Part shown: piece after piece, positions 9,254 through 63,620 of the stretch | How the letters are laid out: the number at the start of each line of letters is the position of its first letter | Numbering within the stretch: position 1 is the first letter of the stretch | Source: Phoronis australis | Taxonomy: Eukaryota > Animalia > Phoronida | DNA length: 64,000 nucleotides | Reading direction: 5' to 3' | Assembly: GCA_002633005.1 (NCBI GenBank) | Contig: NMRA01000086.1 | Coordinates: 124,001 to 188,000 of the forward strand | Notes under the pieces: model-generated | What the model was told of the DNA's origin: nothing | Databases searched by the model: none | What the model saw: only the letters and a program-made list of their open reading frames with translations | Translations under genes and position numbers: made by a program

Positions 9254-9281
9254 ATGGGAAAACGTGATAGAAAAGAAAAAG
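9254..9281 (+). CDS. ERCC3: ERCC3 exon 1 (coding part)
   Basis: MGKRDRKEK+G; phase 1 requires a GC donor at 9282. Confidence 0.75.
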
Positions 9282-21200: not shown

Positions 21201-24200
21201 ATGTAAATGATTTTTGCTGTCCTTTGGTGGCTAGTGTTGGGCACCAGGTGGTGGTGCAGGAACTGCATGGAATACTAAGACAAAAAATACTGGTATAGTA
21301 ATGTCACGCAAAAATTCTCGGTGAACCAATCAATACCTTGGAAGCTAAAAGTGTGGCTGATTCCATATTTTCATTTTTATGCGCCCACGTGTTTATGGTG
21401 TTATCCTTGTCTGTCTGTCCGGCGCCGGCTGCTCTATCTCCAAAACCATTCACTCATTCAACCAATATCTTTTGTTTATGGTTGACATGAATTCTTGGTG
21501 GAATCATGTGAAAAGATTTTGTATCTTAGGGGATCTTACTGTCCTGATAAATTTATGTTTTCAACGTTTCAATTGCAGGCTGTACTATTTGTATCAGCAC
21601 TTATTCAATGATAGCACACACAACCAAGAGGTCGTGGGAGGCGGAAAAAGTGATGGAGTGGCTCCAGACTCAGGAGTGGGGACTCATGTTATTGGACGGT
21701 GAGTTATTCTTAGTGTAACAGTCACATACAGATGTCCTGCATTTTGAGAAACAGTTTTCTCAACTGCTTAACTGGCATCAAACTGGTTCTCAAAATCCAG
21801 GACCCCTGTAAGTATCTATAGGCATTATTGGAAGTCAAGTCCGCTTTTGTGGAGTTCTTAAGTGTGTTTCTTGAAGAGTGTTTAATCTTCAGGTTGAAGC
21901 CGGGTGTCAGAAATTTTGTCGAATTTACAACTTTTGTATCTTTGTCTTTCTTATTCTTTGATGTGTTTACTGTAGAGTAGATTATGGGTTAAAGTAATTA
22001 AACTTCATTTGCCTTATTGGTTATTGTCCAATTGAAATATTTCATTTAATGGGCTTAGCCAACTGAAGACAAAATTTTTGTTTGAAGACAAATGCCTTAA
22101 GTCTTCAAGAAAAAGTGTTTTTTAATCTGCCCATAATTTTTCAACAAGTGAGGTCTGGTATTTTCTGTGCTTTAAATCCACATTTATCCAACGATGTGTG
22201 ACCAATGTTGACCTGTAATTGTTGCTGGACATGGAGCAGTCCTCTTAGAAATGTGACTTGCACCTTTCATTGCTGGAATGATGATTTTGGGACTGACATC
22301 TTTCTATTTCAAAATGGAGAAAGGTGCTTTAAGCTTGCTCAGTTGGTTTGTACATATTGTAACTCTTTAACTTTAATATCTTCTGCAGGTTGAAGCCATG
22401 TTGTTTATTGTGCATTTGTTTGTCACAATGGGAACACAGTGGAAACACTAATGAAGTATTGCTGAATCTCAGATGATTTGCATATAAATCAGTTTATGTT
22501 TTTGTCTTCAAACAGTTTCATCAGGATGGTGAATAACAATTAACATACGGGGAAATTCCATTTTTCCATCCAAAAAGCGTTTTAAAACTACCTGCAGAAT
22601 TTTCGACATCTGGCTTTCCTGATGTCTTCTGCAATACATACTAGGTGGCGCTGTACACAGGATGCTGTTGAATGTTGCGCTGAGTTTGTTGAAGTTGCTG
22701 TAAACCTGTTATGTTCTTTCTACTCCAAAATGTTGTGCATTTCATTGTAAACCACACAGAAGGAAAATCACACTGGCAAGTTTATTCACTGAATGCTACT
22801 GGCATGTCTTCAATTGAAAAAAAAGTAGATAATATTGTAAATTCACCCAACACCTGAACAACACACTCTGCACATTAAGAAAAAATATTAAATATTTACA
22901 ATATCCTGTAGGTTTACTCCACGTCAAATTGATTCAACAGGATACTTGTACAAGCCCCTATTGAGCGAAACAGTTATAACAACGCCCATTAAAAATTTGC
23001 ACAAGAAAAAATTTTCATAATAACAGCCATTAAGAATGTGTGCGTATAATGACAAGAGATCAGGCTGACTAATTCTGAGATCATAAACTTCTTTTCTCTA
23101 GTTTCTTTGCTATGCAAAAATAACATAATAATTACCCAGTTTTACTCGTGTTTTGAACAATAAAGTCTTGACCAACTTGGAAAATAAAATACAACTTTAG
23201 CCTCAAAATATTCATACGCTAATTGTAAAAGCTCACCAGTTTAAGACACAATTAGCATACAAGTAGAAAAATTATGTTTTTCACTGTTTTCATGTATTAA
23301 TCGTGATTATTTATCTATCAAACAAGACAACACTGAGAAATTGTGGGTATTTGAAACAACGTCTTTCATCTGAAATTAGTGAAGTTTTACTTACAATGAA
23401 TTCTTCATCACAGATATTTAAAATAATGTCGGTCATTTAAACACTTATATATATAAATATGATTCCAGACAAATAAACCCTATAAAACCTGGTGAATGAT
23501 AGCACACCCTCTGTTTGAAACAATACTACAATATTAAAATATTATGTTAATATAATATTAGAACACATTATTGAAAAATCTTACAGCGTGTTATTAAAAT
23601 GAGCAAAAGAAACAAACAGGAACTTACAAATACAGGTTGTAAACAATGAGTAAACAGTATATATTAACAACAAGAGTAATCTCAGTACATGTTAATTTCA
23701 AGGATTGACTGTAGAGTAAAATGTAAACAGTTAACGAATAACTCAACAGTTGATAGTAACACAAGAAAAAGACAATTTATCATGCATAGTTTATGTTTTT
23801 GCATGATAACATCAACGAGTTACAGTTGAGGTATTATTGGTTAAACAATTTTTTGTGTAAGCTTTATTTGTTATTCTTTGGAATGTAGGAGCATACAATG
23901 TTACTTAAATGTCCTGACACATTCTTTTGGCACGAGTTTTCCTTACTGAGAATGATAAGAGGTCATGTTTGAAACAGGACATCATACGACATAAAATGGA
24001 GAACTTAAAGGCACCATATGATATGGTAATTATAGTGCATCAATGTTGGCATAGGTAGTCACTAGGGAAATGTGGGTTTGTGGCAGTGCTGTGGATGTGC
24101 AAGAGGTCATTAAACATATTAAGACCAGTTGCCACTACACTCAAATACTGGTTTTATCTTCACCTTCTGCTTGACTTTTGTTTTCGTCCAGTTACTGAAT

Positions 24201-27200
24201 CTTGACATTTAAGGCATCGTCAGTGGTTTATGTCTGTCCAGGCTCTACACCAGAGGTCACTGTTTTTTTCAATGAATAAAATCAACTGATTTCTTAAACC
24301 TTGAACACATGGCAATCAGTGGTAATGTCATTCTGGCCATTTAAATGCTGTCTGTTGGATCAAAGAGTTACAGACGAGGTATTATTGGTTAAACAATGTT
24401 TTTGTATAAGCTTCATTTGTTATTTTTTTGGAATGTAGCTGCATATAATGTTACCTAAATATCCCGACACATTCTCTTGGCAAGAGTTTCCTCAATGAGA
24501 ATGATCAGAGGCTGTGTTTGAAATAGGACATCATACGACATAAAATGGACAACATATGATGTGGTAATTATAGTGCATCACTGTTGGCGTAGCAAGTCAA
24601 CAAGGAAATTTGGGGTTGCGGGAGTGATGTGAATGTGTAGAAATTTACAGAGCAGCCAATTGCAGTGGGTCGTTGCCACAACACTTAAACACTGGTTTCA
24701 TCTTCGCCTTCTGTTAGACTTTTCTTTTCGTCCACTTCAACATTTAAGGCATCGTCGGCAGTTTCTGCCTCTCCACCTTCTACACTAGAGGTCACTTGTT
24801 TCAGGGAGTAAAATCGCCTGATTTCTGCTTGCACCTTGAGCACATGCCGATCAGAAGAAATGTCATCCAGGTCATATTTAAATACCGTCTGCAGGATGTT
24901 TGGTAGTGTTGCGGCTAGCAGTGTGGCAAGTGCCTCCCCTAGACTGGTGATAGAATCCTCACTAAACACATCAATTGTGGTTGCTATGAGGTACAGGAAG
25001 CCAGCTGTGAACAATATTTGTCCAATGGCAGGTAGCTCGTGTTTACTTAGGGGAAACAAGCTGTATAAAACATTGTAATAGAGATCTCGTGGTATGAGTG
25101 GGATGCCGTCCTTCCTGTAGACAACTAATGGATATTCTAAGGTTTCCGTTGTCTTATCATCAGCATCAAAGTTAGACTCTAGGCGTTCATTTTCTTCTTG
25201 ACAGGCATCAAATATTAGCTTCTTGTAATACAGGTATCGGATTTCAACATTGCCTAGAGTTGTATTCAGGAACTGCCATCCTGCTAGAATAATTGATAGA
25301 ATCGGCATCACTTGCAGATAATTCTTGACGGCACCTCTTACGCTATAGACAATTATGAGTCCCACAATTCGAGATGACTCAATAAACACAAACATTGCAA
25401 AAAGTAATCCCATCACAGACACCACCACTCCCAGTAAAATGCCTAGCAATTTTGCAACCTGATGGCGGCCATATTTTTTCACCAGTTGTCGCGTTGTACT
25501 TTCTTCTGGTTTTCTTAAACCTCTCGCAATCATTTCAAGCGGTAGACAATTTACCAAAGGGAAGAAGTTGAGCAAACTGAATACATAGCCAATAAACCAC
25601 AGAATCCTTACCAGTGGTTCCTTAGGGCCACATTTTTCTTGACATTTAAATAACGCCACTAAGTCTCTAAACCAGAAAGACCAAAAATTGGGGTTGATCA
25701 TCAGTGATAATCGGTGAATCATTTTCCGCTGAATCTTTTTTGGGCCTTGATCATAAGTTGTTTTTTGTCTCAGCTTGGGAGGGAGCTTGATGAATCCCAT
25801 ATAGCCATCATCTAGGGCTAGGCGATCAGTCAGCATGTACAATGGTACACCACTGGCGAAAATCACGGCGGTGACACCATAGGCCACCATGGATATGGAC
25901 CAAAACATGTAGTGTGGATTTGAAAAGAAATTTCCCGCATAGAGTTGATCGAAGCTGAATAAATTCAACAGCTGTCCCGTGATGTTCAACTTTCTCTCAA
26001 CATCCACCAAAAACATGACCTCTTCACTGTACTTGAAGTGAACAACCAACAAATAGATATACATAACAATAGGATATAACAAGATGAAGAAAAGCAGTCG
26101 TCTTATCACTCCAATCACAGCATTGTCGGAATTCATGAGTAGCAGAAACTTGAGCGGACGTGTTATTCGTACTGGAATATCTTTATTGTAAGGTATGTAC
26201 TGGATTCCCTTGTTGACTTCTGCCTTGATCGGTGATGATGTACAGGGCTCAGACCATAGGGGCTCTATCGGCGAAATTGGCTCATTGGCCTCAGACTCAT
26301 TATTTGGGTCTTTACTTTTCAATTTTGTCGGTGTTGTATCAGTTGCACCTTGTTCTTCATGTGTGCTCTGCGTTTTTACGTACTTTGGAAAGTCTACTCC
26401 ATCAAATCCTTTAATGCTTCTGCTTCGAAGTTCTAATTTGTCTAGTTTTTTGTTGGCAATGCTTTTCTTTTTTCTCAGAATGCCATTCGATTCCAGTATG
26501 AAAATCTCTTTTGGCTTGGTAAAGAGGGCAGAAAGTAACAATGGACTGAGTAAAAACACTAATATGTATACCATGATCACAAACCAGTCGTCAGTATACA
26601 ATTCTACATAGTGCCCACATTTCGGAGCCACATGAAAACTACAACAATATGGTTGCGTGTAGTAGAAGTTATGTGGGGTTTTGGCCAACTTGTGATAGCA
26701 TAATGATGAGTTTGGATATATATATGACCCTAGACTATATTGCAAAACGCTCATCAGATGTCTTATTGACTTAATTTTCATGGTACCATTACTTCTCTCA
26801 TTGCACTTAGTGGTTAAGTTCAATGTTAAGTAGCCGACATCACTCGTCAGCATGCCAAGGGAATAGAACTCAAATCGAAAATCTATCTTTAACAGTTTTA
26901 TACCTTCGCTCTTCCAAATCCAAATCCACTTTTTTTTCTCCAGGATGTCTTGAAAACGTGCTTCTGGAAAAATCACTTCATCGGGGAAGTTTAGTGTCAC
27001 ATGAACTATACTGTATTTGTTCTCAAGAATGAGATCCTGTAGAGCCTCTTCAGACTTGTTGGTTACTTTATATCGACATAACATGTTCTCAAGTTTGTAA
27101 GTAGATTCACTGTCATCTTTTACGTATTTTGAATCTTTAAACAAACCTCTACCCCTTTGGCTGTATGCCTCTCTCTGTAACTGCATCATCAGTAAAATCA

Positions 27201-30200
27201 AGAAAATTGTTCTAGCATACATTGTGTGCAGATATCTTGCCTCTCTGTTGCAGTAGTGTTAGCAGTAGTTTCAGCTTGCGCTGTAGCTCTCAGTATGTCT
27301 GAAAATATAGAATAAACTGGTCATTTTCGGACTATCTTTTTTTTTTAACAAAAATCATGTGAGTTAAGTCGCAAAAGATTTAAATTATTTTTGTACAAGT
27401 ATTCTGATGAAGTGTATCAGGCTATGATGATGTGCATTATGATGATCCAGAATGATTCACAGCAAATGGATGTTATCTTGTGGCAACTGACCTATACCAG
27501 ACTTCCCACCCCCTTGCGAAAATTCACGTGGCACCCAACAAACAAACAAGATATCGGAGGCAAATATACCGTCGTTGAACGATGTTCCTGATGGAATCGA
27601 TGAGTGTTTATTGGATTATCCAAAAAGGCTGTGACAAAGACAACAGGTGGTGCTTTTTAGCAGAGATTCGTACGTTCTTGTATGAGAATTTGTAAAGGCA
27701 AGGATGAAAAAATAAGTATTTGAGGAAAAGTACTTCGGAGTCAGCAAAAATCCGAAGAACCCCAAACGGTTCACATTCACTTGACAAATGGTAAGGTCAT
27801 TGATGCGATATGTTCATATAAAGCTGGGTATGTACCTTAAAGTTGTAATTATCTGTATGATGCCATAGATGTCAGGATACTTTGAACAAAACCAATGAAA
27901 ATTCACCGATGGTTTTATTCTGCCATCTGCTTAATTCCGCCAAATGAAAAGTAGATCTCCGAGTAAAGTAGGTCGAGTCGATAGCACTGTGTATGCTTTT
28001 CTAATCTTTGAGCGAAATATTTTGATTTAAAAACTCTTGGTTCATACCTCAGGTACACACTCGTCTCGTCCTAGACAGTTGGCGCAGGTATGTCTGGGGC
28101 TGTGTCCATGTCAAATCAATATGTGGAAATGGCCGTAATTCTAATTCTTTTTTAAAGCTTCATAAATCCAAGTATCATGTTTGAACAACTACAAAATGAG
28201 CTCTCTGTAACTCTACAGGCAAAGTGTAAACTAGAGTTTCTCGACGAAAAGTTATTTAACTGTTTATTTTTTCTAAACAGCAGCTCGAACAAAGCTTTGA
28301 GTTCAGTAATCCAGTGCCCCTTCTGTGCCGATTGAATCTGTCAATTTTGAGTTCAGTTGAATGCTAGCCTTCGGGTATATCAATAACAAAAAATGTTCCT
28401 CACTTTTGCTACGAAAGAAAACAATGTCAATTCAGACAAAATAAATGAAAAATGTCCTTAAAAACAACAATGACTAATGCTGGGTCCAGCAGGTGCCAAG
28501 GCAAAAGGGACCGAACGAGTGCAACAAGGGGGGTGTCAAAATCAAATAGGCTTACAATATAGCTAACAAACTGAAAAGTACGTAGTTTGGAACAAGTGTA
28601 TTAATTTGTGTCTAGCCTTCGAGTAATCAAGTAACATTGCCAAGTTCATCTGCTCGTGTGGCCGTCCACACAGTTTGGTCCATCGTTTACACCTTCAACA
28701 TCACCTTTCCAGTTAGCAGATGTCCAAAAAGCGACTGGATAATATTCTCGAGCTGCATAACAGCACTCAGAAATACACGACATAGGTTCACTGTTTCACC
28801 ATTCTTATAGCACAATTTCTTGAGCTATAAACTAAAATAAGCTTTACCCGACAACATGTTGTTTGTTGGGTAAAATGGTGGCTTGGAAACACAGACGACG
28901 GTGTGTCAAGAATGCTATGTTCTGATTGGTCAGTTAAGCTGACAGTCAAAATCTTGACGATAGGTCAATTGCTATTTCATTATGGCAATTGGTTAGATGG
29001 ATACTCTTAGCTTAGACTTTGTTCGGATAATGGCTGCCTACACAGACATGCTGTACTATTGTGGACGTGAAGGCTAGCAGCAATGTTGCACGAACTGTTC
29101 AAGTTGTATCTTGTAAAGTGATTTGTGCTATTTGAAAAAGGTAAAATTTAACTTTGGATATTTACCATTATAAAACTAGTCTCAATATGTTCCTTGTTAA
29201 GATTGAGGTTAAGCACCCACATTTGGGTAAGCACCCACCCCCAACTTCTTGAAATTTCCAATTTAGATTTCTATCTCTCCACGGTTCCCATAGGCCTGCC
29301 AAAAATGAATGTAAGTGCCCATTGCGTTAACCTGAATGTTTAAGGTAAATACCATGGTGTTAACATGGACAAAAACATGTGGCTCTAATTCCCATCGTAA
29401 GTTATGAATAAGACACATATTGTCAATGGACCTGTAATGGATATTAACTAAACGACAACAGGGTTCAACACTTAGAGAACATTGGTTGAATAAGTAACAT
29501 AGCAATATTAAGCTGCTTTCTACCTCTTTTGATGTCCAAAAGCACTTAAGCCCTTTGTGCTGTCAACTTAATTCAGAACTCCTCAATTCTTTCCCAAGTC
29601 CAACCTTGATTTCATCTAAATTGTAGTCATATTCTCTGCAAAAACATTTACAAATGTATTTTTATCCACTTGCTGAGCCAACTCTCAATGTGTTTATAAA
29701 ACCAGTATACCAGGGCCGCACTTTGTCAAAGATTTTATCACCCGGTCATAGCTAAGACTGTACTGGCAAACGCCACTTTGAACTTTTTAAAAGAGTGGAA
29801 ATGTTGGAACTGATGTAAAGTTAGTAATTTTTCAGACTTCACTAGCCAGTTTAATGAACTGTCTGATAATTAAAAGTGGCTAAGATTGGACTGACCTTAA
29901 TGAAACAGGCCCAACCTATCTGCTCATTAGCAGATTTGAAAGTTCACATGCGAACATTAACATAGGTTGTCAAAATTAACCACTATTTGCAATGGTTTTC
30001 AGTACATTCAAAAGTGGCCTATATATGAAAGCAGAACAGGTTGAACATGCGCTGGTTTGCCTATGACATTTGTCCTTAAGCATTAATTTATGGACATGCA
30101 TGACCAATGATCAGCTAATTTTGATGTGAAACTGCAGTAGCCAGACGGGTGTCCTAGGACAGAGGTGATCCTGCATTTTAAGGGGCGTCTAAATTACCGG

Positions 30201-33200: not shown

Positions 33201-36200
33201 CTTGAATATATGCAGCATTTATCATTTGACCATTTTACTTCGACAAAACAGCTTGCAACCGCATGCATTTACCGTTCGCCAGTGTCTGGTCTCGATCCGC
33301 ACCGGGTCCGATAGGCTGCGGTCCCGAGTCTGGCAAAATAATTTCTGTCAAAATTTATTCGCCACATTTCTTCAGCAAATTCGATAAAATTGTCTGTAGT
33401 TTGATTTTATTAAAATTAAGGCGCGCTGTCGATCATTTTATCCCCGTTTGCTGGCTGGTAACAGTACAGGCACTGCTCGAGTCGCACTGACGGCGTTTTC
33501 TCGGCCTGGGTTCCTGAATGAATTGTACTTCCGGGTTCGCGGCAAGTTCAAAATGGCGGTGTTTCTTCGGGTGCGAATCGTGAGTGGCGCGTTCATTTAA
33601 ACTGTTTTCGAGTACGGATGGTGTATTAGTTATGGGGTAGGTACTTCTTGGATCCTTATAACATCTTCTAACCATGTAATTACAACGCGTGAGAGAAGGA
33701 CTTTAACTACAATGCCATTGGAGTTATCAGAGATGTCACTGCATTTGCCAACAGCGGGTGGTAACTGGTTAATATTTGTTAATATTTTGTCCCAATAATT
33801 TTAATTTCAGCAGTAGAAGCATTCTGTTTCAATTTGTCCACGTGCTCACTGGATTCCTTCCTTAAAAAAATCGCTGAACATTTTGTGTATGCAAAACAAG
33901 TTCCAGCCAAACATCACACTGCCCTTACATGGATCTGCTGCTAGCAACAAGACTCCAATTTTCTGTTAAATGTTGTCAAATGTCGTAGCTCATTGTACAA
34001 GTCAAGGTCATATTGACGCTGCCTTGCGATAACTTCCTTGAACTATACTCCGAAGTTGATGTGAAACACTAATGCTCAACTTCGAGGTAAACCACAGTTA
34101 ACACTGAAGCTTCAATTGTAGCAATTAATTAAAGCCATCTTTGTGGCTCAAGTCAGTGGGCAGAACATGTGTAAAAGGTACCGGAATAGCTATAACCAAC
34201 TCAAGTCGAACAAGTTTAAAGCAGGTTGTTTCCAGCAGTATTAAGTCTTAGCTGATAGTATAGACTCACATCATAGGGAAGGGATGTATACATGGTTCCT
34301 GTGTCTATTTTTGTCATCGATATTTCTCACTAGTGATACATTACACGCGATTACTAGTATGGCCAAGCAAATCCGAAATGGCATTTGGAAGGAGAGCGAA
34401 ACAATCATGCTGCTTGAGGTGTGGAGGGACGTCAGTGACCTTACAAGGGTGGCAGGAATCTTCACTGGAACATAGAAATCTTTCAGTATTGATACTAGCC
34501 AACTTATAACATAAGTAAGGGTACTAGACGCGTATTTTGAAATATCCATGAAAAGAATCTTACGTTGACACCCTAGCCAGTGGAGATTGGGCAACTTGAT
34601 TGGTTTGTGTACCACAGAATCTGCTGGTTTAGATCAAAGACACAATGCTGTTGTGGTTGATTAAACTGCCTCAGGCTACTGATGTTATTGTTCTCTAGGT
34701 AGTGAGACCACCATAAACACATTTGGGGTTACAATAGTATTTTTAAATTTTCGTTTTGAAAGTTTATAAATAGCATATTTGAATAGTTAATTAATGAATT
34801 TTGAAAATTGGACAAGAAATGTAACTTTTACATTATAGAACTTTTGTGTTACGTTGCAATCATAACATGTTCCTCATTAATTCTGCTGGGTGTGTTATAT
34901 AATTGGGCCAATTACCAAACCACCAAGCAGCAGTTGGATTTCGAGATAAGCCAAGTGTCGTCCTGCATTTGTTGGCATAGGAAATATTAGCTTCCATGGC
35001 GCATAACAGTGTAGCAGTGCGAAGGTTTACCCTGGTATATGTTGCCACACCCAAGCCATGTGGAATGCTAGCCGATCACCTGTATATATACTATTGAGCA
35101 AGCACATTGAAAGATGGTTCTTTTCCACCATCCCCCAGTTGTCTTTAGAAGTGCAGTTGAAACTGACTTAGTGCAACTCGCACTACCTCTCAAACCGGTA
35201 TCAAAAATGGTCGTCGCGGTATCAACTTGCTCCGTGTCAGTCGTGTTTACTCACATACTTGTGCCGATCAGCTGTTCCATGTTAGTTTCACTGTGACAGC
35301 TGTCTCCCGTGTAAATGCGGCCATTGAATGCTCACCTAGATCCACTCATTATCCGCCAAGTCCACACAGCTCATTTCCATGTCTTTCGTGTTGCTAGCAC
35401 AAGTCTAATCAGATGGAGATTAATTGCAGTGGGAATACTATCCTTATCAGTGAAGCAGCTGAAGTCTCTAATTAGGTGTAAACCTAACCAAATGGGTCCC
35501 CTGTTATGGTTTATAATTTTTGAAAAGGGATATTTTTGTTCTAGATGTGTGTTCAATTAGACTAGTAGTTTTTATGATGCATTGAAACTTCGAGGATACT
35601 TTTGTTTGTAAGGCTGGGCTAAACACTTAAGTACTGCAAGTTAAGTGCAGTTCTAGCAACATATTTATATTCAAGGAGCAGTGTTTCAAATGTTTTTCCC
35701 GTTTCGATAAGTGCAAGACACACTTTGTGGGTTATTAAAGTTTAAGCCGTATGAATTAAATTTAACGCAAACCAATTTTACCAAATGTTGTTCTTACAAT
35801 ATGACATTGATTTTCTTAAACTCACCTTTTGAATTTTTGATAGCGCACCACAAAATAAATGATACCAAACTGGACTTAAAAAAACAAGAAAATACTAAAA
35901 TGTAACTGGTTTATAAGAATTGTCTGCTGATACTCAAAATGAATTACCGTAATCATTCGGGTTAACGCCCATGCTCAGTTAACCGCCCACCCCTACTTTA
36001 GGTGGATTTTCGATTTAACCGCCCACTGCTCAGTTAAGCGCCCCCCTACGATTTTTGAAGATTTCCAGTTAAGCGCCCACCTCTCGGTTAAGCGCCCATC
36101 CCGGACTTTTAAAGAATGAAGATTTAGCGCCCTGTGCTAAGGAAACGGTGATTCCCCGACTTTTACAAAAAGACCGATGATCACAATGAGCGTAACAATG

Positions 36201-48200: not shown

Positions 48201-51200
48201 GGCAAATCTTAAATCTCAGCCAATTTAAGATCAAACTCAGTTAAATTTGTCTCAAGTCTGCTTCAGGAAGGAGATCTTATGTTTGACTTAAGTTTTTTAC
48301 TAAAGTGAACGTAAGTTAGTTTCTTGGAACGGTCCCATGACCTTTCGTTTTTTTTGTTGGTGTAAAGGTTCTGAAATTAATACATTATCAATTATCAATA
48401 TGTATTAAAGAATTTCCTTGATCGTTTAGCCCTGCCTGCTTTAACACATGACTTTCTGCATGGTTCGGAGTAGTTTCTAGTTCTAGTCACATAAGATTTA
48501 GCTGAGGGTTGGATGCTTAGCATAATGACAATTTTTGCAAATGCGACCTGGCAAAATTTACAGGTCACCAAACAGGAAGTGGGGTCTCCAAACCTTGTTG
48601 GCAAGGGCCGAAAATGAAATAGACGAGATACCTGAAGTGGAAAGGCAGTGAATTCCGCAAATATCCGCCATATACCACGTGCCCTACTGACGGCCAATTT
48701 CCTCTTTTGGGCCCAATATCGTACACACCTGAGATGTAGGCCCACCCCCCTGAGGCAGACGAGCACAAGCTATTCCAATTTTTTGCCATCTGTTTACTTC
48801 CTTTAGCATTTTAAATGCATGCTAGGAAGTATTATGGGGACTTCATGGCAACCTGGGATTTTTACCACATGACATTCTCATGACAACAAAAATCAAGTGC
48901 TCTTTTACTGTTTTTACCAACTGTCTGTCATTCTGAGGAAGTCCAATTGTCAGCATACATAGCAATTTGTCTATATCTTCTGTTTTTGTGTTTGATGACT
49001 AATAGATGCATTCAACAAATGATGCTAAAATATTTCAAAGATCTGCACTTACCTTGATGTCTGGGTTATTTTTGAATTACAGCATTTCACACAGTGTATA
49101 GCAATGAACAAAGCCAGCAAGAAGTCATGTACCATCATGTTATGAATATAAATTTACCATTCAAATGAGCTTGGAACGCTGGATAAATCGCGTCATCCGG
49201 TCAAGTTGTCCAGTCTGTCAGCAGTCTATTTGACGTGTTGACGTTCTTACACAAGGCATGTACTGTATTGCTGAGCCCATACAAACCAGCACTTCGTTAT
49301 CCTCTGGTGATTGCAGAGGTTATATAGTAATCGTTCCCCGCTTTTTATCTTCTTTTGAGTTATCTGTGCTCATGTCTTATTGTGAGCCTGCTTGTACATT
49401 CCAAGTTTGTACTGTTAGTGTTGATGTGACCCAATTATATTTTTAACTTATTTTTGTGCTCTCAATAACATCACAGTGCGGTTGACCTCAGACTACTCGT
49501 ATTACATGCACTGCTGACCTCAAATGTGAAAAGGTGGTTGTTTGCTCATTCTACGATCATGAGTTTTTGTTCTGTCTACACTGTGTTGCTGAATGTGCTA
49601 ATGTAACCCCAAGCATCTACATAACAATTATTATTGCTATATGAGTGTTTCTTACTTAGGGTGATTCAACTAAGCTTCCTTAAATTACAAGTGTCCCTTT
49701 TACACACAGATTACAAAATAATACAAATATCCACTTATATTGACGTTTTATCTTGTAACTGTAAAAATTCCTCAGTTTGGAACACAAAAAGCAGAATTTA
49801 AATTGTTATTTTTAAAGATTTTTTGTTTGGTGGTTTGTGATACCTGATGACAATCAGAAAACATTTGTTAATAACTATTTTTCTTTGGTTATTTGACACA
49901 ATGAGATTCTATAACCCTACCATATAGTGATGAACATGGTTATTATCATACACCTAATATAAAATACACTCCAGGTATACTTTGCTTACCTCAAGATAAC
50001 AACTGTCACCCATGGCGCATCCATCATACACCAAGGTATTCTACATGACATAGGCCTGACACCTTTATATTTCGGTTGTTTACTTAACTGTTGGGTCATG
50101 AAAGATCTTTTTGGTCATGATTCTATTTACCTTTTCATGATGCATAGAAGATGAATTTGAAAACCTTTCAGTTCTGAGCTTGAAGATGCATTTTGCTCCA
50201 TTTTAAGCTGCGGAAGAAATGAAAATCGAGTACAACCGGCTTTTACTGTCATGAAATCTTTCTTTTAATATTATTCATTACCATGATAGGAATCTATTTC
50301 CGTTACTTACAACAACATCAAAACTATCAGCTACTCAAGAAAATGACGCATTGCCTGGTAATTGATATAGAATACTGTCATGATAAGGAATATTACGAGA
50401 CCAATTTAATGAGGGTGAAAGGTGAAATGCAGTTTTAATTATTGTATTTGTGACTGCTTCTATGGTCTGTAGTGGCAATTTTATTATTTTCTTTACATTT
50501 GCCTCAGTATATTCGAACTTCATTGATGGATTTTCGTGAAATTTTGGCAAATAGGTTTCTATTTAGGAGGTAACGATGCTCTTTCATTTTCCTTTGGATG
50601 CGATGTATTTTTGCACTACTCAGTGTCGATTTTTATATTTTCGAGTCCATTTTTGGGCATCTGCCTCTTCATTTGCCAAATTGCTTAAAGGATCGCTTAA
50701 AAGGCTGACAAATGTGTTGCTGACACGAAGGCGGAGGATAACCTTCATTTTTGGATGATCTGACCACTGTGGCGCGCTCTGGTTCTGATTTTGTCTTTTT
50801 TGCATCCTTGGCTGTATCTGATTACTCCATTGATAAATCTTTGTAAACTTTTGCAAGTGTTATCCCTTAAATACTGCCTACGTCCTTTGGACGGTTGTAG
50901 CAACCGCTGCACCCCCTTGTGGCAATATCAGTTTTTCGTTTGCCTCTGTATTTTCAGAGTTCATTGACAATTTTTAATCAAATTTGACTAACAATTTTCA
51001 GTCGTAATGGCGATAGCAGCATTCCATTTTGGGATGGATTTGATGTATTCTGTGCCATAGTGGCCATTTTTATTGTTTATGAATTGGGATGGAATAGGTT
51101 TTGCTTTGCTTTCCGACTAGATGTTCAATAGGTAAATCACTTTCTGAAAGACCTAGGGAGTCTGGTGAGTCAGACGTTTCTGCCCTCTCTAAGGGCTGTG

Positions 51201-57200: not shown

Positions 57201-60200
57201 TGGCAAATTTTGTAAACGTTACAAACAGCCCTGAAAATTTTGACACCATCAAGGGTTGCAAACATGTTATTCAAAGTTAGTCATTCCACTTAAGACGTAT
57301 TTGTTCCTATTTAGCCGACAAAGAAAGGAAACTAGGCCTTTTGCTGTCATAATATCCATCCAATGATATTCCTTGCCATGACAGGATTCCATTTCCGTTA
57401 CCAACCCAAGTCATGGGTAATGCGTGTATGCGCCATTTTCAAATTTGCAATTTCCTTGAGTTGCTGATGCTTTCTATCTACTTGTTGGTAATGGAAATAG
57501 TTTTATGTCACTACAAGGAATATTTTCCAGATTGATTTTAAGATATTTTCATTTTTATCCAACTATAATGGCGAAATACAGTTTTAATTGATTTTTTGAA
57601 AACCCAGAATTTAGCTTACAAGTAGTGAGCACAAATGACATTGTCATTTTAAAGGTGAAAGCCAATATTTTTGCTGTTTTTATTAAAAGTATCGTATGCT
57701 TGTTATCATAGACATTCCAGTGGTAATTACTGCTTCCGAGACCCTAAATAATTAGCATATGACAATAGTTTAACCAGTCATTTATATTTTAATGAAAATA
57801 TTGCCTAAAATGTTGATTTGCCCTTTTAAGAACAAAATTGCTACCTTTTTGTCTGTTTGTTTGCGAAATTAAACGGTTGTGTAGCTGCAATATTATTATC
57901 CACAATCCAGGCAGTTGTTTCTTTCATCCATCAGTTAAAAGGACTATTCTCTCTGTAGAGAATGAAAATCGGTTTAATGCAAAATGAGTTTTGCTCGAGA
58001 TCTCGTCTATAAAGCCACGTTCGGGCATTATTGGTAAAGCTGATCTCGACCTCTTCCGGACTGAGATGATATTACCGTAAACGTTCGGGTTAACGCCCTG
58101 GGCGGTTAAATTGGCAAACCCAAAAAATCGGGGGTGGGCGGTTAACCAGACATGGGCGCTTAAACGTGAAACTTCAAAAAATCCAGGGTGGGCGGTTAAC
58201 CGAACATGGGCGCTTATTACGACAGGCAAGCGCCCTGGGCGGTTAATCTTACCTCGTGATCTAAGTACCCACACCACACACGTAGTCGTAGGCCTACTCG
58301 GAACGCGTAGCTCTTTTCAAAGAGCGTTATCGTCACGTCGCCACATGACGGGAAAAATGTCATAACAGCGGATGATCCTAACAAAGGTTATCATGCCCTC
58401 AGATTAGTTATTCACTATTAAATTTACAGAATTGCTGAGTAATAGCCCCGTGCCGTCCTGCGGTCTTGTTATTTAGCCCTGTAGTGTAGAGCGCAGACGA
58501 CCAGTGACCACGCAGCCTCTACTTGGATTGCAACTATTTCATCTTGCTAAAGTGCGCGCGTGCAAGCTTCACGTGTTGCAGAGGTCACAGCAGACATCAG
58601 ATTTATGGTTACAGTCTCGTACTAGCTGCCAAGTTCATAGTCAGAGAGCAGTTTTAAAATTGGTTGTAATAAAAGTTTGAAAACCTTAATTCAGATGTTT
58701 TTTGTGTTTGGGATGTTTATAGTCAACACTCCGTGACTCAATGACATTTTCAGCGTATGGTTCTGTGGCTTGCTGTTTTATCTCGACTGCCCGGCATTGC
58801 TCACTTGCCGTTGCGCCAAACATGCTCGGCAAAGAAGTAGGCCCAAGACAAGAATCGGGGTTAAGCGGCCGTGTGCCACTCGTCAATCAAGAATAAAATT
58901 TCGAGCCACGGCATAAATATGTGATAAAACGCTACAAAACAGCGATGTTTCAATTCATAAACGATCACCTTACCAAACTTCGTGGTGGAAAAACATTTAT
59001 TTTTCATGCAAGATGTCCAGATTATCCTATTTATATCACTTGCAATATCGCACTGCGGCACTGTTCGGTCCCGTTGTTAGCGCGCAATGACTCAGTCGGC
59101 TGACAATCGTGACTTGGAAATGCCGTCAAGTAATATAACGGCCTCTTTCAATATGCATCTCGTTTTTTATGGCCAAAGATAGCGGCGGGATTCAGCACGC
59201 GCGTAGGGCCTACGTGCGAGTCACCTGTCAATCACATGTTGGTGTCAAGGTAACATGCACTCCAAAGTGTGGGAACTTGCGCGCGTGCACCAATACAAAG
59301 TCACACATCAAAGGAGAATAGCGACAGTCCTAAATAACAGAAACGGGCATGACTATATACTTTTAACCATTGTCTCATTTCTCTGGCCTGATTTTTTCGA
59401 ATATATGTTTTATCAAGTGCACTGCAGACGAAAACTCAGCGCGGCAGACAAAGTCGCTGAAAGCGGAGGTTTTGACGCCGGCGGCGTTCTTAAACTTTGC
59501 AAACATGGGAAGAATATAAAGTGACAAAAACGTTCAAGTATGATATTTTTATGCGAGTCCGGCATGACCCAAGACAATAACTCGTTACTTGTATAATTGC
59601 AAGTCACATTGCTAAGCCACCGTCTCGGAAGCCCGGCGTCGTTGCACTCATTGTGTTCATCGATCTTTTTCTAAAAGTCGGGGAATCGCGCGTTTCCTTA
59701 GCACTGGGTGCTAAATCTTCATTCTTTAAAAGTCGGGGATGGGCGCTTAACCGAGAGGTGGGCGCTTAACTGGAAATCTTCAAAAATCGCAGGGGGGCGC
59801 TTAACCGAGCAGTGGGCGGTTAAATCGAAAATCCACCTAAAGTAGGGGGTGGGCGGTTAACTGAGCATGGGCGTTAACCCGAACGTTTACGGTAAGTGGT
59901 TTCTGGGTTTGTGGAAAGTCTGTCATTTTGTTATTGCTTGAGGCCATGCCCGTGGATAAAGTGACACACTGTGACAAGTCAACTTGTAGATGCTGGCCTA
60001 TCAATAAAACTCAGAAATCACGTCTTGCTTGAATAAGGACAAAATTGAGAGCAATTTCGAAAATGCAAATGATTTAGATCAAAAACCTTTGTTTCTGATG
60101 AAAGGTGAGTTTATAAAAGTTTTAATTTTTAAACTAAGCGAGATTATTCAACTCAAACCTAATTGTCTTAAAGTTTTGTTGGCACTAAACTAATTGTCAA

Positions 60201-63148
60201 AATTGCCATTTGGTTATCTTGTTGCAAATAATGGAAACTTTACAAATGTTTCATGATATTTACAAAAGATAAAAACCATGCTAGAAATACACTGAAATGT
60301 TCTTAATCCTTATTTTTAATTAAAGAAATTTGACAACATAGAATTTCTCTCATCCGCCTCGGTGTGTGCTGAATTGGTAAACACTTAAGTAGTTAAATCA
60401 CTGATTAAGTCGGTCTCTCAATGTATCTACAACTGTACAAAACTGTTTTATTGACTTAACTCCAATCCATTCATAATTATTAAGAATTTGGAAAAAATAC
60501 TAAAAGCATTGGAATCTCCTCAGACTGTAAGATTAGCTCAGATGTCTTAAATTAAGCTTACGGAAATGTAGGGATGTAGGTGAAAAGAAAAGAAAAGAAA
60601 TTACCGGTATGCGAAATTATTTAATGGTTACTTAAGGGGTAGTTTTATGCACAGCAATCTGAAGCACACTCGATATAACAGAATTTTCTTAGAAGGTGTT
60701 AAATTGACGTTTGTAAGAAACTGAAGCCATTCAAAGTAAAATATTTTTGTATTTAATTTTTAAAGATAAACAAACTTCAGGTTATCCATATCACTTACAA
60801 CATGGTTGACTTCTCTACACCAAATGTTGCTTGCATATTTTGTTCAATAAGTGCAATTAGTGAGTTCACGAGGCAAGCTACTAAACAGTGCATGGTTCAT
60901 ACCTTCAGACAAACTTTGGCTACCATACCTTTTCGCATTTTAGTCCTACTATTGCAAATCTTCATCTGCACTCTAACTGTTTTTTATCTTGAACTATGAT
61001 ATTTTTAGTCAGGTCAGTAACCTTCCAAGGTTATTTGTATAGCCGCCAGTACTTACACTAGGGCACTAGGTCAGTAAGTGAATGTTTGCCAGTCCTCTTG
61101 ATAGTAGTGCATTTATAACTCTCCTGCTTTACCATATTGCATTATGACAGGATACTACAGAGGCAACTATTTTAGACTAAACTGATTTTTATGTGAGCCA
61201 GCTGGACTTTTCTCATAACAGATGAAATTAAATCAATAGAACTTAGAAAGTAACAATCATATATTGGTGTTCGTTTTAGTGCTTTGATTTCATAGACTAT
61301 GGTATACTATATTGTCACCAAGTTAGGGCATGTTGGGGCAGACAAGTGAAATTTTTTTCATGTTTTCCACCAAATTAATGATTTTTCTGTATTCAAGTTC
61401 TATGCTGTTGCTACCAACAGGTAATGTTTAGACATTGGTAAATGCTTTTGAAAAATGAAAAAAGAGTAATTTTGGCAATTTAAAGAAATTGGTGAGATTT
61501 TACTGTTATTTTTTCAGTGATCAAATATATATCTTCATAGGAAAAGCAACTTGAACTGTAGCAGGTAATTGCCTTTAAAAGTTAACATTAGGTGAAAAAT
61601 TTGAATGAATGAATGACTTGGCTACAAAGTAACCGAGCTTCATAAGTAGAACAGTAGGATGCAGCAAATTGATCTTGCCCAACTAAGTATTTTTTCTCGT
61701 AAAATTTATCAACATTCTGATCACAAATCATGATTCCCATGTTTCATCACTATTTGTTTAACTTTTGCTCTTATTTGTTGTATTATTTCAAGATTCAAAT
61801 ATGTCTCATTTCACGTAGACATTGTACAGCAGAGTTGTCTGCGTATGAGGCAATTTGCTATATGTCCCGAAAATGGCATTTTCAGAATAGTCCACACCTT
61901 GGGCTTGTCTCCAGAAAGCTTTGGTACTAATAATTTCATCTTACCTGTTGGTGGTTTTATGTTTGAAGTGCTGCTACAGCCTGAAGGTTTTTTTTGTTCA
62001 TACACTCTGGCAGGTGCCCACCACTTGTTACAGTCATCCAAATAACATCTTCAATTGCTAAAGGTTTAACTTTTCTGTATAGTCTGTAATTAAGCTCATT
62101 ATGCCCCAAGGTTATTGTGAAGGACAGGACAAATCACATGTCAATGCACATTCAGCATTTATGTACATCAGAAATACCATGTTTCTAGCCATTGCTTTTG
62201 CAAACAACTCTGCAAGCTACAGCTCGGGGTAACCTAACCATCACAAAACCAAGCATTGACGTGGGGTTGTGTACAACGCGTTAGGTATGGTTCATAAAAT
62301 GTTTGTTTTTGGCAGAAGTGATGTATATAAGATCCCATGCAAACCACAAACATTAAACTGGAATAAATCTCAGTTAGTGGCTTTGAACGTTCCCATTGAA
62401 GAACTCGGTGAACTTCATGTGGTCCGTCAGCTTGGAATGCTAGCTGGCCTAATTGAAAAACAAAACATAGAGTCCCTTCCCAAAACATGAATCAAAGCAT
62501 ACGATGGCACTACATGGAGCTTTAAAGATATTTCGTGCTATATGTTATGGCACTGTTTAAAACCACAGACTGTAGAAAATAAATTTGACAGTAAAAAGTT
62601 CAAAGTGAAAGTATCGTTAAACATTGACCGTTGAGCCCTTTGTTACGTTGATATTTGATGCTCCTTGTGGATCCTTCTGTCTTTCTTCTATTTTCAATGT
62701 TACTGAAATATGAGTGATTTAATTTTGAAGGATAGTAATTAAAGAATTTGTTCATTTTAAGTCTTTATCCTCATTTTTCTGTTTGATATTCTAGTCAAAC
62801 AAAAGGACTAATTGCTCAGAAATTGGACCTCACTCTTTACGGAGGTAAACATTGTTTTCATGAGCTAATTACTTTACAGAGGTACACACCATCCCCGCAA
62901 AGATGTTCCGACGAGTTCTGACCATTGTCCAGGCTCACTGTAAACTGGGTTTGACTGCTACACTGGTGCGAGAGGATGATAAAATTGCTGATCTCAACTT
63001 TCTAATTGGGCCAAAACTATACGAGGCAAACTGGCTTGAGCTGCAAAACAGAGGCTTTATTGCCAAGGTTCAATGTGCTGAGGTTTGGTGTCCAATGACA
63101 CCAGAGTTCTATCGTGAGTACCTACAGACCAGGACTATGAAGAAGATG
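9254..63148 (+). CDS. ERCC3: ERCC3/XPB, TFIIH 3'-5' DNA helicase/translocase; 14 coding exons in window, continues past right edge
   Basis: Spliced translation: MGKRDRKEK...DEYGAKDYR...[21 protein letters not shown]...[26 protein letters not shown]...[32 protein letters not shown] (Walker A)...WGLMLLDEVH (Walker B)...[14 protein letters not shown] (RED motif)...[17 protein letters not shown]. It is collinear with human XPB as recalled, and all phases are consistent. Confidence 0.98.
9466..9546 (+). CDS. ERCC3: ERCC3 exon 2
   Basis: tacag|GTGAG...ATGG|gtaatt; [19 protein letters not shown]. Confidence 0.85.
9584..10068. mobile_element. Palindromic MITE family A, copy 2 (ERCC3 intron 2)
   Basis: aattatgcctcacactga at 9584 is inverted at ~9970-9988. 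Inner arms ~9661-9762 and ~9833-9934 are also inverted. The right end is the reverse complement of 8251-8330. Confidence 0.8.
10568..12295. mobile_element. Non-autonomous DNA transposon, Tc1/mariner superfamily (Tc2/pogo-like CCGTA termini), copy 1
   Basis: Perfect 24-bp TIR CCGTAATCGTTCGGGTTAACGCCC, TA on both flanks, subterminal GGGCG(G/C)TTAA arrays, no transposase ORF. Confidence 0.88.
12392..12522 (+). CDS. ERCC3: ERCC3 exon 3
   Basis: [13 protein letters not shown]...DEYGAKDYR...RPLWV. Confidence 0.95.
12930..13160. repeat. Short interspersed repeat family B (related copies at ~50238-50400 and ~57338-57525)
   Basis: Shared ttttactgtcat...atgataggattccatt(c/t)cc(a/g)ttac core at three sites; boundaries approximate. 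Confidence 0.55.
13375..13455 (+). CDS. ERCC3: ERCC3 exon 4
   Basis: [27 protein letters not shown]. Confidence 0.97.
13949..14104 (+). CDS. ERCC3: ERCC3 exon 5
   Basis: [11 protein letters not shown]...IQEFIK. Confidence 0.97.
14846..14920 (+). CDS. ERCC3: ERCC3 exon 6
   Basis: [25 protein letters not shown]. Confidence 0.97.
15373..16212. mobile_element. Non-autonomous TIR element (PIF/Harbinger-like termini) in ERCC3 intron 6
   Basis: ~38-bp TIR GGGCTGTTCCAG(T/C)AAAATC(C/T)GT(G/A)TGGGAGGGGGG; flanks tcg/tca could be a decayed 3-bp TSD. Confidence 0.75.
16236..16355 (+). CDS. ERCC3: ERCC3 exon 7
   Basis: [20 protein letters not shown]. Confidence 0.95.
16431..16596. mobile_element. Small MITE in ERCC3 intron 7
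   Basis: ATAGACCTAATTCA(T/C)GC inverted at both ends. Confidence 0.65.
16689..16894 (+). CDS. ERCC3: ERCC3 exon 8
   Basis: [40 protein letters not shown]. Confidence 0.95.
17808..17879 (+). CDS. ERCC3: ERCC3 exon 9
   Basis: [23 protein letters not shown]. Confidence 0.97.
18345..18451 (+). CDS. ERCC3: ERCC3 exon 10
   Basis: [35 protein letters not shown]. Confidence 0.97.
19030..19133 (+). CDS. ERCC3: ERCC3 exon 11 (Walker A)
   Basis: [35 protein letters not shown]. Confidence 0.97.
19490..20111. repeat. 16-bp minisatellite (GATACTATGTCACTGY), about 39 units
   Basis: Direct tandem copies; the ORF track shows the expected 16-aa periodicity. Confidence 0.97.
20930..21002 (+). CDS. ERCC3: ERCC3 exon 12
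   Basis: [24 protein letters not shown]. Confidence 0.97.
21579..21698 (+). CDS. ERCC3: ERCC3 exon 13
   Basis: [40 protein letters not shown]+G|gtgagt. Confidence 0.97.
24141..24360 (-). pseudogene. Degenerate copy of the C-terminal ~70 codons of the nested membrane-protein family
   Basis: Aligns to 24685-24897 with indels and ends ...DKTSI*. It is part of a tandem duplication of 23811-24358 and 24359-24895. Confidence 0.85.
24685..27222 (-). CDS. Uncharacterised multi-pass membrane protein, paralog A (845 aa)
   Basis: Uninterrupted ORF with signal peptide, Cys-containing ectodomain and ~8-9 hydrophobic segments; full-length similarity to B and C; 5'UTR acceptor AG at 27299-27300. Confidence 0.93.
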   Translation of the reverse strand: MYARTIFLILLMMQLQREAYSQRGRGLFKDSKYVKDDSESTYKLENMLCRYKVTNKSEEALQDLILENKYSIVHVTLNFPDEVIFPEARFQDILEKKKWIWIWKSEGIKLLKIDFRFEFYSLGMLTSDVGYLTLNLTTKCNERSNGTMKIKSIRHLMSVLQYSLGSYIYPNSSLCYHKLAKTPHNFYYTQPYCCSFHVAPKCGHYVELYTDDWFVIMVYILVFLLSPLLLSALFTKPKEIFILESNGILRKKKSIANKKLDKLELRSRSIKGFDGVDFPKYVKTQSTHEEQGATDTTPTKLKSKDPNNESEANEPISPIEPLWSEPCTSSPIKAEVNKGIQYIPYNKDIPVRITRPLKFLLLMNSDNAVIGVIRRLLFFILLYPIVMYIYLLVVHFKYSEEVMFLVDVERKLNITGQLLNLFSFDQLYAGNFFSNPHYMFWSISMVAYGVTAVIFASGVPLYMLTDRLALDDGYMGFIKLPPKLRQKTTYDQGPKKIQRKMIHRLSLMINPNFWSFWFRDLVALFKCQEKCGPKEPLVRILWFIGYVFSLLNFFPLVNCLPLEMIARGLRKPEESTTRQLVKKYGRHQVAKLLGILLGVVVSVMGLLFAMFVFIESSRIVGLIIVYSVRGAVKNYLQVMPILSIILAGWQFLNTTLGNVEIRYLYYKKLIFDACQEENERLESNFDADDKTTETLEYPLVVYRKDGIPLIPRDLYYNVLYSLFPLSKHELPAIGQILFTAGFLYLIATTIDVFSEDSITSLGEALATLLAATLPNILQTVFKYDLDDISSDRHVLKVQAEIRRFYSLKQVTSSVEGGEAETADDALNVEVDEKKSLTEGEDETSV
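30472..30628. repeat. ~155-bp imperfect palindrome (MITE-like)
   Basis: ggtaaaagttgagtaaac...cttcaaaatggct pairs with agccattttgaag...gtttactccacttttacc. Confidence 0.7.
34359..34600 (+). pseudogene. Degenerate Myb/SANT-like (trihelix) DNA-binding domain fragment, likely a Harbinger transposon relic
   Basis: [24 protein letters not shown] resembles the W-x-x-x-E-T-x-x-L-L-x-x-W start of this domain. Disrupted downstream pieces read [13 protein letters not shown] and [11 protein letters not shown]. Confidence 0.45.
35947..38101. mobile_element. CCGTA-ended non-autonomous transposon, copy 2 (inverted relative to copies 1 and 3; spans the gap)
   Basis: TIR CCGTAATC(A/G)TTCGGGTTAACGCCC with TA flanks; both arms are reverse-complement matches to copy 3. 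Confidence 0.88.
36614..37356. other. Assembly gap (743 N)
   Basis: Run of N. Confidence 1.
38489..38972. mobile_element. Diverged TIR-less fragment homologous to the interior of transposon copy 3 (~58920-59340)
   Basis: Shared blocks tggaaaaacatt(c/t)atttttcatg(t/c)aagatgtcc, ctgtcaatcacatg and agcgacagtcctaaataa. Confidence 0.7.
42470..45007 (-). CDS. Uncharacterised multi-pass membrane protein, paralog B (845 aa)
   Basis: Uninterrupted ORF with the same architecture as A and C; 5'UTR acceptor AG at 45079-45080. Confidence 0.93.
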   Translation of the reverse strand: MHTGTLFFLFTLVHVVRQVNSQVRTSLFKDMKYVVDKLAELPVGWTPCEYSVTDESVQALRQLIHENKRSLVYMTLNFPDGVIFPETSYQEILRMDRWIWIRKGEGLELLKVDFRFEFYSLGILSTDVGFVTLNFTAKCNLRSNGMQIDSLQQMMFVLQQSLGYYISTNSSLCYHKLAKSTKDQYYTQPYCCTFDQMSPECGHFIGIYTSGWFTITLYVFVFSLSPLLLASFFTKQKEIYILEPNGTLRRKKSLVHKRLESLNLKHNDQVEEVEFPNYIKKRNKTTQHNELDSTPSTSKSTAAKTDSHFNEHTVQTEPLCSEPSTLSPIETEVNSGVQYITYNKHTPVRITHPFKFLLLLNVDNLVIGVIRRLLFFVLLYPAVIYVYWIVVHFMYNDHIMFLIDVETKMNITGQLMELLFFDHLYAGNFFSNPRYIFWSICMVAYGVTAVIFSSGVPLYMLTERLALDDGYMGFIKLPYNLRQKTIYDQGTRKIQRKMAHRLSLIVNPKFWRFWFKELVALFRCREQCGLKESMIRILLFFGYIISLLNFLPLTNCLPFDMIVRNVRKPEDSETRRLVRTYGRRKLAKLLAIMIVLVVIVWGMIFAVYIFMESSRIVVIIIIYSVRGAVKNYLQVMPILSIIAAGWYFLKTTLGNVENRYLYYKKIIFDVCLQEHERLESKCEANEKIETHTYPLVIYRRDGIPLIPHDLYYNVLFRLFPLSKHELPAIGQLLITAGFLYLIATTIDVFSKNSIANLGEALTTLLAATLPNLLQAVFKYEQDAITTDRHVFKVEAEIRRAYSLQKQLTSVVKEAEAEPAAQVLDIELQEVDEKESLREGEAESSL
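46001..47217. repeat. Interspersed element with ~400-bp internal tandem units (about 2.7 copies) carrying CTCF-like motifs
   Basis: Units restart at caggatctt (~46096, 46511, 46922). Related pieces lie at ~21374-21452 (head) and ~50790-51075. Confidence 0.8.
48164..48336. mobile_element. Small MITE with Harbinger-like termini
   Basis: GGGGCCCGTTTCAAGAAAACTGACTTA vs inverted TAAGTTAGTTTCTTGGAACGGTCCC. Confidence 0.65.
51124..51364. mobile_element. Palindromic MITE with ~85-bp arms
   Basis: ttcaataggtaaatca...tgagtcagacgtttctgccctctct...gttcactga is inverted at 51281-51364. Confidence 0.8.
53981..54075. repeat. 45-bp tandem duplication
   Basis: ccctt(a/c)agttcccccacaatgtaacccttctgtaaagggttaata x2. 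Confidence 0.92.
54345..56891 (-). CDS. Uncharacterised multi-pass membrane protein, paralog C (848 aa)
   Basis: Uninterrupted ORF with the same architecture as A and B; 5'UTR acceptor AG at 56989-56990. Confidence 0.93.
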   Translation of the reverse strand: MHAAAIFSFLLMAGFQRQVSSQVRTDLFTDMIYVEDGHFDEEINMTNSDVSNYTLTDKSTFDLQKLVQYEKNNIIYMKLLFPSDAIFPETSYREILQMDRWIWIRNAAGVKLLKVDFRFEFFSLGTLSSDVEHVTLNFTTICDPKQCGVEKIESPHQMRSILQHSLGMYIPANSSLCYHKLANSMDNYYAQPTCCSNELFPNCGHFVELHPNDWFVFTVYVLVFSLSPLLLTVFITKPKETYTLRRNGILRRKQSFAKKMLRTLNIQENDNEWDEEVDFPNYVKKRADDGQRAVDKTRSGLKRAANKDPSSSEQLSPIELLCSQPAVSTGKADVCCGIKYIMYNKDTPVRLTHPLKFLLLLNIDNIVLGVIRRLLFFVLFYPILIHVYLLVVHIKYSKHVMFLTDVETKMNITGHLLELFFFDHLYAGTVFSNPYLIFWTLSMVAYGITATIFSTGVPLFILMDRLSVDDGYMGFIKLPTRLRQKTRYDPDTQKLQRKMVHRLSLMIDPQFWCFWFKELVALFRCHERCGVKESLVRILLFFGYIMSLLSFLPLVNCLPFDIIARALRQPEESETRRLVKKYGRQQLAQLIAIIFAVTMSLWGLLFAIFIFMESSRIAGLIIIYTVRGVVRNYIQIIPIVSIILAGWHFLQTTLSNVEKQYLSYKKIIFDACIQEDDRLKSKFSPDEKLLQFPAYPLVVYRRDGIPLIPRDLYYKVLFNLFPLGKHELPAIGKLLFTAGFLHLVATTVGVFSEDSITSLGEALTTLLAATIPNFLQAVFKFDQDPITTDSHNFKVHKEIRRLYLLNGQVTSELEHKVVEPAAEDLGTESQNEETKTAAQTEDVELTAV
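58075..59892. mobile_element. CCGTA-ended non-autonomous transposon, copy 3
   Basis: Perfect TIR CCGTAAACGTTCGGGTTAACGCCC, TA flanks, subterminal repeats. Confidence 0.88.
62880..63148 (+). CDS. ERCC3: ERCC3 exon 14
   Basis: ttacag|AG GTA CAC; [35 protein letters not shown]...RTMKKM|gtaagt. Confidence 0.97.
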
Positions 63149-63154
63149 GTAAGT

Positions 63155-63620
63155 TGTGATGGTGGTGGTGTGGTGCCATGGGTGATGGTGTGTGGTGGTC
63201 AGGCAATGGTGGTGAGGTAATGGTGGTTGGGTGATATTGTCAGTGTGGTGATGATGGGGTGGTGGCAGATGGTGGGGTGGCATAGGAGTGATGATGCTGG
63301 GGTGGTGGTGGTGGTGATAATAGTGGTGGTATTGGGTTGGTGGCAGTGTGGTGGGGTGGTGTGGGTTGACGGTGGTGTTGTAGTGGTGATGTTGTGGTGT
63401 TGTGGTGGTGATGTTGTGATGGTGATGTTGTGGTGGTGATGTTGTAGTGGTGTGGTGGTGATGTTGTGATGGTGATGGAGTGTTGTTCTGGTGATGGTGA
63501 TGTGGTGGTGATGTAGTGGTGGTTTGGTAGTGTTGGTGGCAGTGTGGTGGTGGGGTAATGATGGTGCTGTTGGTGTCAGTGTGGTGATGGAGTGTTGTTG
63601 CAGTAGTTGTAGTTCTGGTG
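63155..63620. repeat. Degenerate (GTG/GTT/GAT)n low-complexity repeat at the start of ERCC3 intron 14
   Basis: GT-rich triplet repeat directly after the exon 14 donor. Confidence 0.92.

Follow-up and report, generated by a model that had tools for sequence, protein, structure and literature searches.

The XPB/ERCC3 gene of Phoronis australis contains an intron of 41,181 bp (intron 13), which is real and normally spliced, and inside which three paralogous genes (g1, g2 and g3) lie on the opposite strand. We consider it very probable that this spliced intron occupies an old position, shared with other organisms, and that it grew by the antisense entry of one gene, two old duplications in place and the accumulation of repeats.

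An XPB gene with one very long intron

The whole stretch of DNA analysed here, 64,000 nt long (the window), carries the XPB/ERCC3 gene on its + strand, as established by the collinear mapping of five XPB homologs (Table 1). The resulting 14-exon model, in which the boundary between exons 1 and 2 was placed from the reading frame alone, comprises 541 codons with no stop and has the DEVH motif at residues 451-454. Compared with its 12 best animal XPB matches the model is 71-82% identical over ~540 amino acids, the top match among the fetched proteins being bryozoan (81.6%), and exon 14 aligns with residues 443-530 of human XPB at an E value of 1.7e-50. A fast tree placed the protein among lophotrochozoans with weak support. 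The full-length similarity, together with DEVH motif II, identifies the gene as an XPB ortholog.

Exon 13 ends in ...TTG GAC G/gtgagt and exon 14 starts with ttacag/AG GTA CAC, which delimits a phase 1, GT-AG intron that splits the codon for Glu452 of the DEVH motif and in which 743 bp are N. Mapping of the five homologs placed no XPB exon within it. The original prediction, that the catalytic Glu codon is split over 41,181 bp and that all other complete XPB introns are under 3 kb, was correct on both counts: the exon boundaries at 21698 and 62880 are confirmed by sequence and RNA, and the remaining 12 introns measure 184-2,845 bp.

Other features were observed at the locus. Intron 1 (9281-9466, +) appears to be a GC-AG intron (AAAAAG/gcaatg), this being the sole donor that keeps the homologous frame. 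Intron 11 includes a 16-bp minisatellite of 39 copies (19490-20111), and a GGT-rich simple repeat (63153-63624) directly follows exon 14. Head-to-head with XPB, at ~2800-6260 on the - strand, lies a gene that encodes several dsRNA-binding motifs, PF00035 scoring above cut-off in two of its exons, and that presumably resembles TARBP2/PRKRA.

Table 1 Coordinates of XPB, the nested genes and the repeats in the window
Feature	Position	Strand	Basis or remark
XPB/ERCC3 coding exons 1-7	9254-9281, 9466-9546, 12392-12522, 13375-13455, 13949-14104, 14846-14920, 16236-16355	+	Homolog mapping
XPB/ERCC3 coding exons 8-13	16689-16894, 17808-17879, 18345-18451, 19030-19133, 20930-21002, 21579-21698	+	Homolog mapping
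XPB intron 13, phase 1, GT-AG	21699-62879	+	Sequence and 28 junction reads
XPB exon 14	62880-63148	+	XPB similarity; gene continues past window end
Nested paralog g1, unbroken ORF, 845 aa, predicted multi-pass membrane protein	24685-27222	-	Coding exon start 27298
Nested paralog g2, unbroken ORF, 845 aa	42470-45007	-	Coding exon start 45078
Nested paralog g3, unbroken ORF, 848 aa	54345-56891	-	Coding exon start 56988
Decayed tandem duplicate of g1 3' end	23811-24360	-	Last ~60 codons and 3' flank
Likely non-autonomous DNA transposon copy, ~27-bp terminal inverted repeats	35944-38104		N gap mid-element
Gap-free 1,824-bp copy of the gap element, inverted orientation	58072-59895		Sequence match
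Third copy of the gap element, in XPB intron 2	10565-12297		Sequence match

Removal of the intron from XPB mRNA

RNA reads from runs X6-X8, which share one species label and represent three samples of one study, and of which ~18-19% each was read, were mapped to positions 21530-21745. All 52 mapped reads lay on exon 13 and on one strand, and the unaligned ends of 6, 19 and 3 reads in X6, X7 and X8 (n = 28) extended past 21698 with a consensus agreement of 0.99, 1.0 and 0.98, respectively. These ends agree with positions 62880-62909, where exon 14 begins, in 28 of 30 letters, with both differences synonymous; the second-best site in the window has 9 mismatches. Exon 13 and its junction with exon 12 were also present in the RNA; this junction, which spans a 576-bp intron and served as the control, was represented by 9 and 16 reads with fewer than three in X8 (25 listed), and the read ends before 21579 matched the end of exon 12 exactly. 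The ratio of junction reads between the 41-kb and the 576-bp intron was 1.12 (95% CI 0.63-2.0), from counts that are small and in which mates of one fragment may count twice.

None of the 28 junction reads joined exon 13 to an alternative acceptor (upper 95% bound 10%), and no read-through into the intron was seen in X6-X8, RNA depth being zero at 21706-21745. Run X5 had no reads on exon 13 and is evidence neither way. With its GT...AG ends and its removal from mRNA, intron 13 behaves as a spliceosomal GT-AG intron. The two letters that differ at the start of exon 14 did so in nearly all reads, and exon 13 had one polymorphic site in 120; these differences probably reflect alleles carried by other individuals, and a second copy of exon 14 may also be their source. 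One strict pattern for internal AG/GT ratchet sites, applied to the DNA sequence alone, had 0 matches in the intron, and AATAAA occurs 28 times on the sense strand vs 28.5 expected, thus with no sign of purging.

The predicted junction between 21698 and 62880 was therefore recovered in all three samples. The proposal that premature termination might yield an ATPase-dead XPB fared differently and is not supported, given the junction ratio, the use of a single acceptor and the zero depth within the intron. Truncation, other acceptors and lower use of the 3' exon, the marks of transcriptional interference, were absent at 28 junction reads from bulk mRNA, a material blind to degraded aborted transcripts and to exclusion at the level of the cell.

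An intron at the same codon in other organisms

For the metagenome comparison 557 XPB matches were reduced to 80 loci, 76 of them with a locatable motif. A phase 1 intron with an AG acceptor lies exactly at the DEVH Glu codon in 12 of the 76, which amount to about five groups, L001-L006 being near-copies, and the donor was located in 10 of the 12, where the intron measures 53-957 bp. Many of the 64 uninterrupted loci are probably transcripts or fungi. Among the fetched proteins, 13 of 158 occurrences of the motif were without the normal upstream residues, including mispredicted XPB models broken at the same D/E in Exaiptasia, Dermacentor, Rhipicephalus, Ixodes and Melipona. In the Exaiptasia model (P0001) the EVHT...RKRK exon is repeated in tandem, probably through a duplication made during assembly or annotation, with exon boundaries as in Phoronis australis. 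The intron site is thus common to a cnidarian, arthropods and this animal, and what stands out here is only the size of the intron.

A codon split by an intron is restored by splicing, and termination anywhere mid-gene would be equally fatal to the enzyme. With the same position occupied elsewhere by short introns, the special significance originally attached to the split DEVH motif is lost, while the orthologous intron that had been proposed as a check does exist in other organisms.

Three antisense paralogs inside the intron

The ORFs of g1-g3 lie wholly within this one XPB intron. Their pairwise identity is 59-64%, with dS of 1.05-1.18 and dN/dS of 0.23-0.26, values that place them under purifying selection, which argues that all three are functional. 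In a quick tree, whose internal order is unsettled, they formed a single clade (SH-aLRT 100) with respect to 11 outside homologs, none of which is known to come from the Phoronis australis genome. A shared motif resembling a 5'-UTR splice acceptor lies 71-97 nt before each ATG and occurs exactly three times in the window, once per ORF, so that g1-g3 probably begin with a non-coding exon and arose by duplication at the DNA level. As judged against the 11 outside homologs, the clade and the shared non-coding structure are those of a tandem array from one founder, and the flanks of the three genes no longer align to one another.

g1 is transcribed antisense at a low level, with an RNA depth of 0-3 on the strand opposite to the XPB reads. 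A single-copy bin at 29499-30045 (-), with minus-strand RNA depths of 0.82, 0.55 and 0.12, is a candidate for its non-coding first exon. The decayed copy of the g1 3' end is 77% identical to 24359-24897 and contains stops and frame breaks; lying directly downstream of g1, it shows that local duplication has taken place. RNA on the strand of g1 covers this duplicate in X6 and X8 (24029-24575, -), and the duplicate may now be part of the g1 3' UTR. Between g2 and g3, the stretches 46178-47189 and 50471-50693 consist of diverged tandem copies of a ~400-bp unit.

Of the three opposing transcription units originally predicted, all are present as antisense ORFs, and antisense RNA accompanies g1. The accompanying claim, that the intron probably grew by in-place duplication after one founder insertion, agrees with the single clade and with the acceptor motif found before all three genes, but duplication alone does not suffice: the ORFs make up 18.5% of intron 13, and 12 of 27 intronic bins between 21.8 and 36.6 kb have a DNA-contig depth above 200 vs a single-copy level of ~45-60, so repeats supply much of the intron length.

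One of these repeats holds the 743-N gap of the assembly (36614-37356). The element is 1.7-1.8 kb long, with subterminal 54-bp repeats and no long ORF, and the flanks of its copies suggest a TA target site; when the gap join was inspected for a target-site duplication, the flanks were only of TA type. The left half of the gapped copy is present at high copy number in DNA contigs. The two gap flanks correspond to the two ends of the gap-free copy, in one orientation. Upstream of the gap, three overlapping DNA contigs of run X1, a run that may come from the very sample used for the assembly, cover 20200-27607 without a substitution and join exon 13 to g1, at a depth from exon 13 through g1 (44-61x) that is single copy.

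A guest family with few relatives

HMMER searches of 1.84 billion representatives returned 12 relatives of the nested proteins, six of them with E < 1e-30. Two are named, the uncharacterised nemertean proteins LOC135492484 (Lineus longissimus) and LOC141904715 (Tubulanus polymorphus), which show 33-35% identity over the matched stretches (E < 1e-95) and have the same domain layout, but which have longer low-complexity linkers (1,008 and 1,077 aa). Further searches added little: Pfam had no family for g1-g3 better than E 0.03, a PDB sequence search gave 0 matches at E 10 and Rfam gave 0 matches; the ESM Atlas had no usable match for g2 or P0123, and a word-based homolog search with g2 found 0 among 6,156 candidates. 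A metagenome scan for the family yielded 0 relatives among 219 pattern matches, and tblastn of the nested proteins against the 80 XPB loci produced no match. SHR3_chaperone matches occurred in three of 18 family members, none of which is g1, g2 or g3.

Hydropathy predicted 6-9 membrane segments in the nested proteins. AlphaFold2, given 18 sequences, returned a low-confidence model (pLDDT 62, pTM 0.52) in which an N-terminal alpha/beta domain (about residues 45-205) is joined through a disordered linker to a helical membrane region, and the membrane region modelled alone had a pTM of 0.42. The best Foldseek E values were 0.15 for the whole model and 1.0 for the membrane part, from query models whose low confidence means that a new fold is not thereby proven. 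TRP channels were considered as a candidate identity and rejected, the Foldseek rows being weak (probability <= 0.14), and no profile or fold match placed the proteins in any described membrane-protein family (TRP, 7TM receptor, channel or others). We infer that the nested proteins may be cell-surface receptors or channels with a predicted extracellular alpha/beta domain and ~6-9 membrane helices, and that their function is unrelated to that of XPB.

In Tubulanus, the records of XPB (P0021) and of a homolog of the nested genes (P0124) both give a contig of 27,379,721 bp, which suggests that the two lie on one chromosome, but their accession numbers are 2,235 apart; an old linkage between the family and XPB is possible there. 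The more ambitious reading, in which the intron is home to a growing and so far undescribed family of ~850-aa animal cell-surface receptors or ion channels with an unsolved fold and an old link to XPB, is one that we put forward tentatively and regard as rather doubtful. Literature searches, covering few subscription journals, listed no paper about the guest family or about nested genes within XPB/ERCC3.

Origin of the intron and alternative explanations

In the explanation that we favour, one gene would have entered XPB intron 13 on the opposite strand and would have been duplicated in place twice, long ago, with repeats building up between the copies. Because of their opposite strand, the splice and poly(A) signals of the guests would not be read in the XPB pre-mRNA, and with weak or narrow guest expression polymerases would rarely meet, so that the host could tolerate its guests.

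It is very unlikely that the assembly is chimeric, with the two sides of the gap derived from two XPB loci or wrongly scaffolded and with no single 41-kb intron. The location of the gap inside a high-copy repeat and the RNA differences at the start of exon 14 would fit such an error, but exon order, strand and phase are consistent across the gap, paralogs lie on both sides of it in one orientation, its flanks are complementary halves of one element, and the DNA depth at exons 12-13 is single copy. Even in the case of a mis-join, homolog mapping found no exon 14 within 14.9 kb of exon 13 and no exon 13 within 25.5 kb of exon 14. A mis-join would require two separate XPB loci, both having at this position a large intron that carries genes. 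Equally hard to credit is the independent entry of three genes, as retrocopies or transpositions, or the presence of mobile-element genes. Unbroken ORFs are typical of retrocopies, and g1-g3 have both unbroken ORFs and flanks that can no longer be aligned; yet they share the acceptor in the 5' UTR and the same strand, form one clade of similar ages and are under purifying selection, and a mobile-element origin is opposed by the lack of a Pfam match to any mobile-element family and by the single-copy DNA depth over g1.

A regulatory nesting, in which transcription of g1-g3 would lower, truncate or otherwise alter XPB output in cells expressing these genes, seems to us unlikely. It has a precedent in ceh-10, through which a short form of the host gene polq-1 is induced, and co-expression is on average lower in nested pairs than in neighbours (both PMC12274878); in our samples, X7 had the most XPB (depth ~22) and the least g1 (mean ~0.8), a trend over n = 3 that X8 does not follow. 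Against it stand the undiminished long junction, with neither another acceptor nor intron read-through, the very low depth of g1 in bulk RNA and the unpurged AATAAA motifs.

Discussion

The locus is reminiscent of intron 27b of human NF1, at 61 kb the largest of its host, in which OMGP, EVI2B and EVI2A lie antisense to the host and are functionally connected with it little or not at all (PMC5480124); in both cases three opposite-strand genes occupy the largest intron of the host. Unlike in NF1, the guests in Phoronis are all paralogs from a single uncharacterised family, and their host encodes a general factor for transcription and repair in an invertebrate. Nested genes typically represent 5-10% of genes (PMC10282587), and in Drosophila nested structures involve nearly 10% of genes, 71% of the nested ones lie antisense, lethal phenotypes are found in 44.66% of opposite-strand hosts, nested genes are narrowly expressed and most nested structures come from duplication into introns (PMC3814207). 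Mammalian nested genes prefer the largest intron, with up to 3-4 per host inside the 95th percentile (PMC11694760), and nested genes are reported to be no likelier to diverge in expression (PMC13343718). C. elegans has 567 opposite pairs, a DNA-repair host included; there ceh-10, nested antisense in polq-1, likewise occupies a DNA-repair gene, but regulation of the host has been shown for that pair (PMC12274878), whereas none was seen for XPB in bulk reads. Compared with opposite-strand nested genes generally there is no difference in kind, the mid-gene array of three paralogs falling at the top of the range normally seen. The arrangement in the XPB intron is ordinary opposite-strand nesting, and only the guest proteins look new.

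These results show that an essential gene of basal transcription can bear an intron of 41 kb with three genes in it, at no cost visible in the steady-state mRNA. Annotation pipelines need nested models at this locus, as otherwise XPB gets split. Of most interest is the guest family itself, which is conserved, duplicated and under purifying selection, and which stands without a family or structure match.
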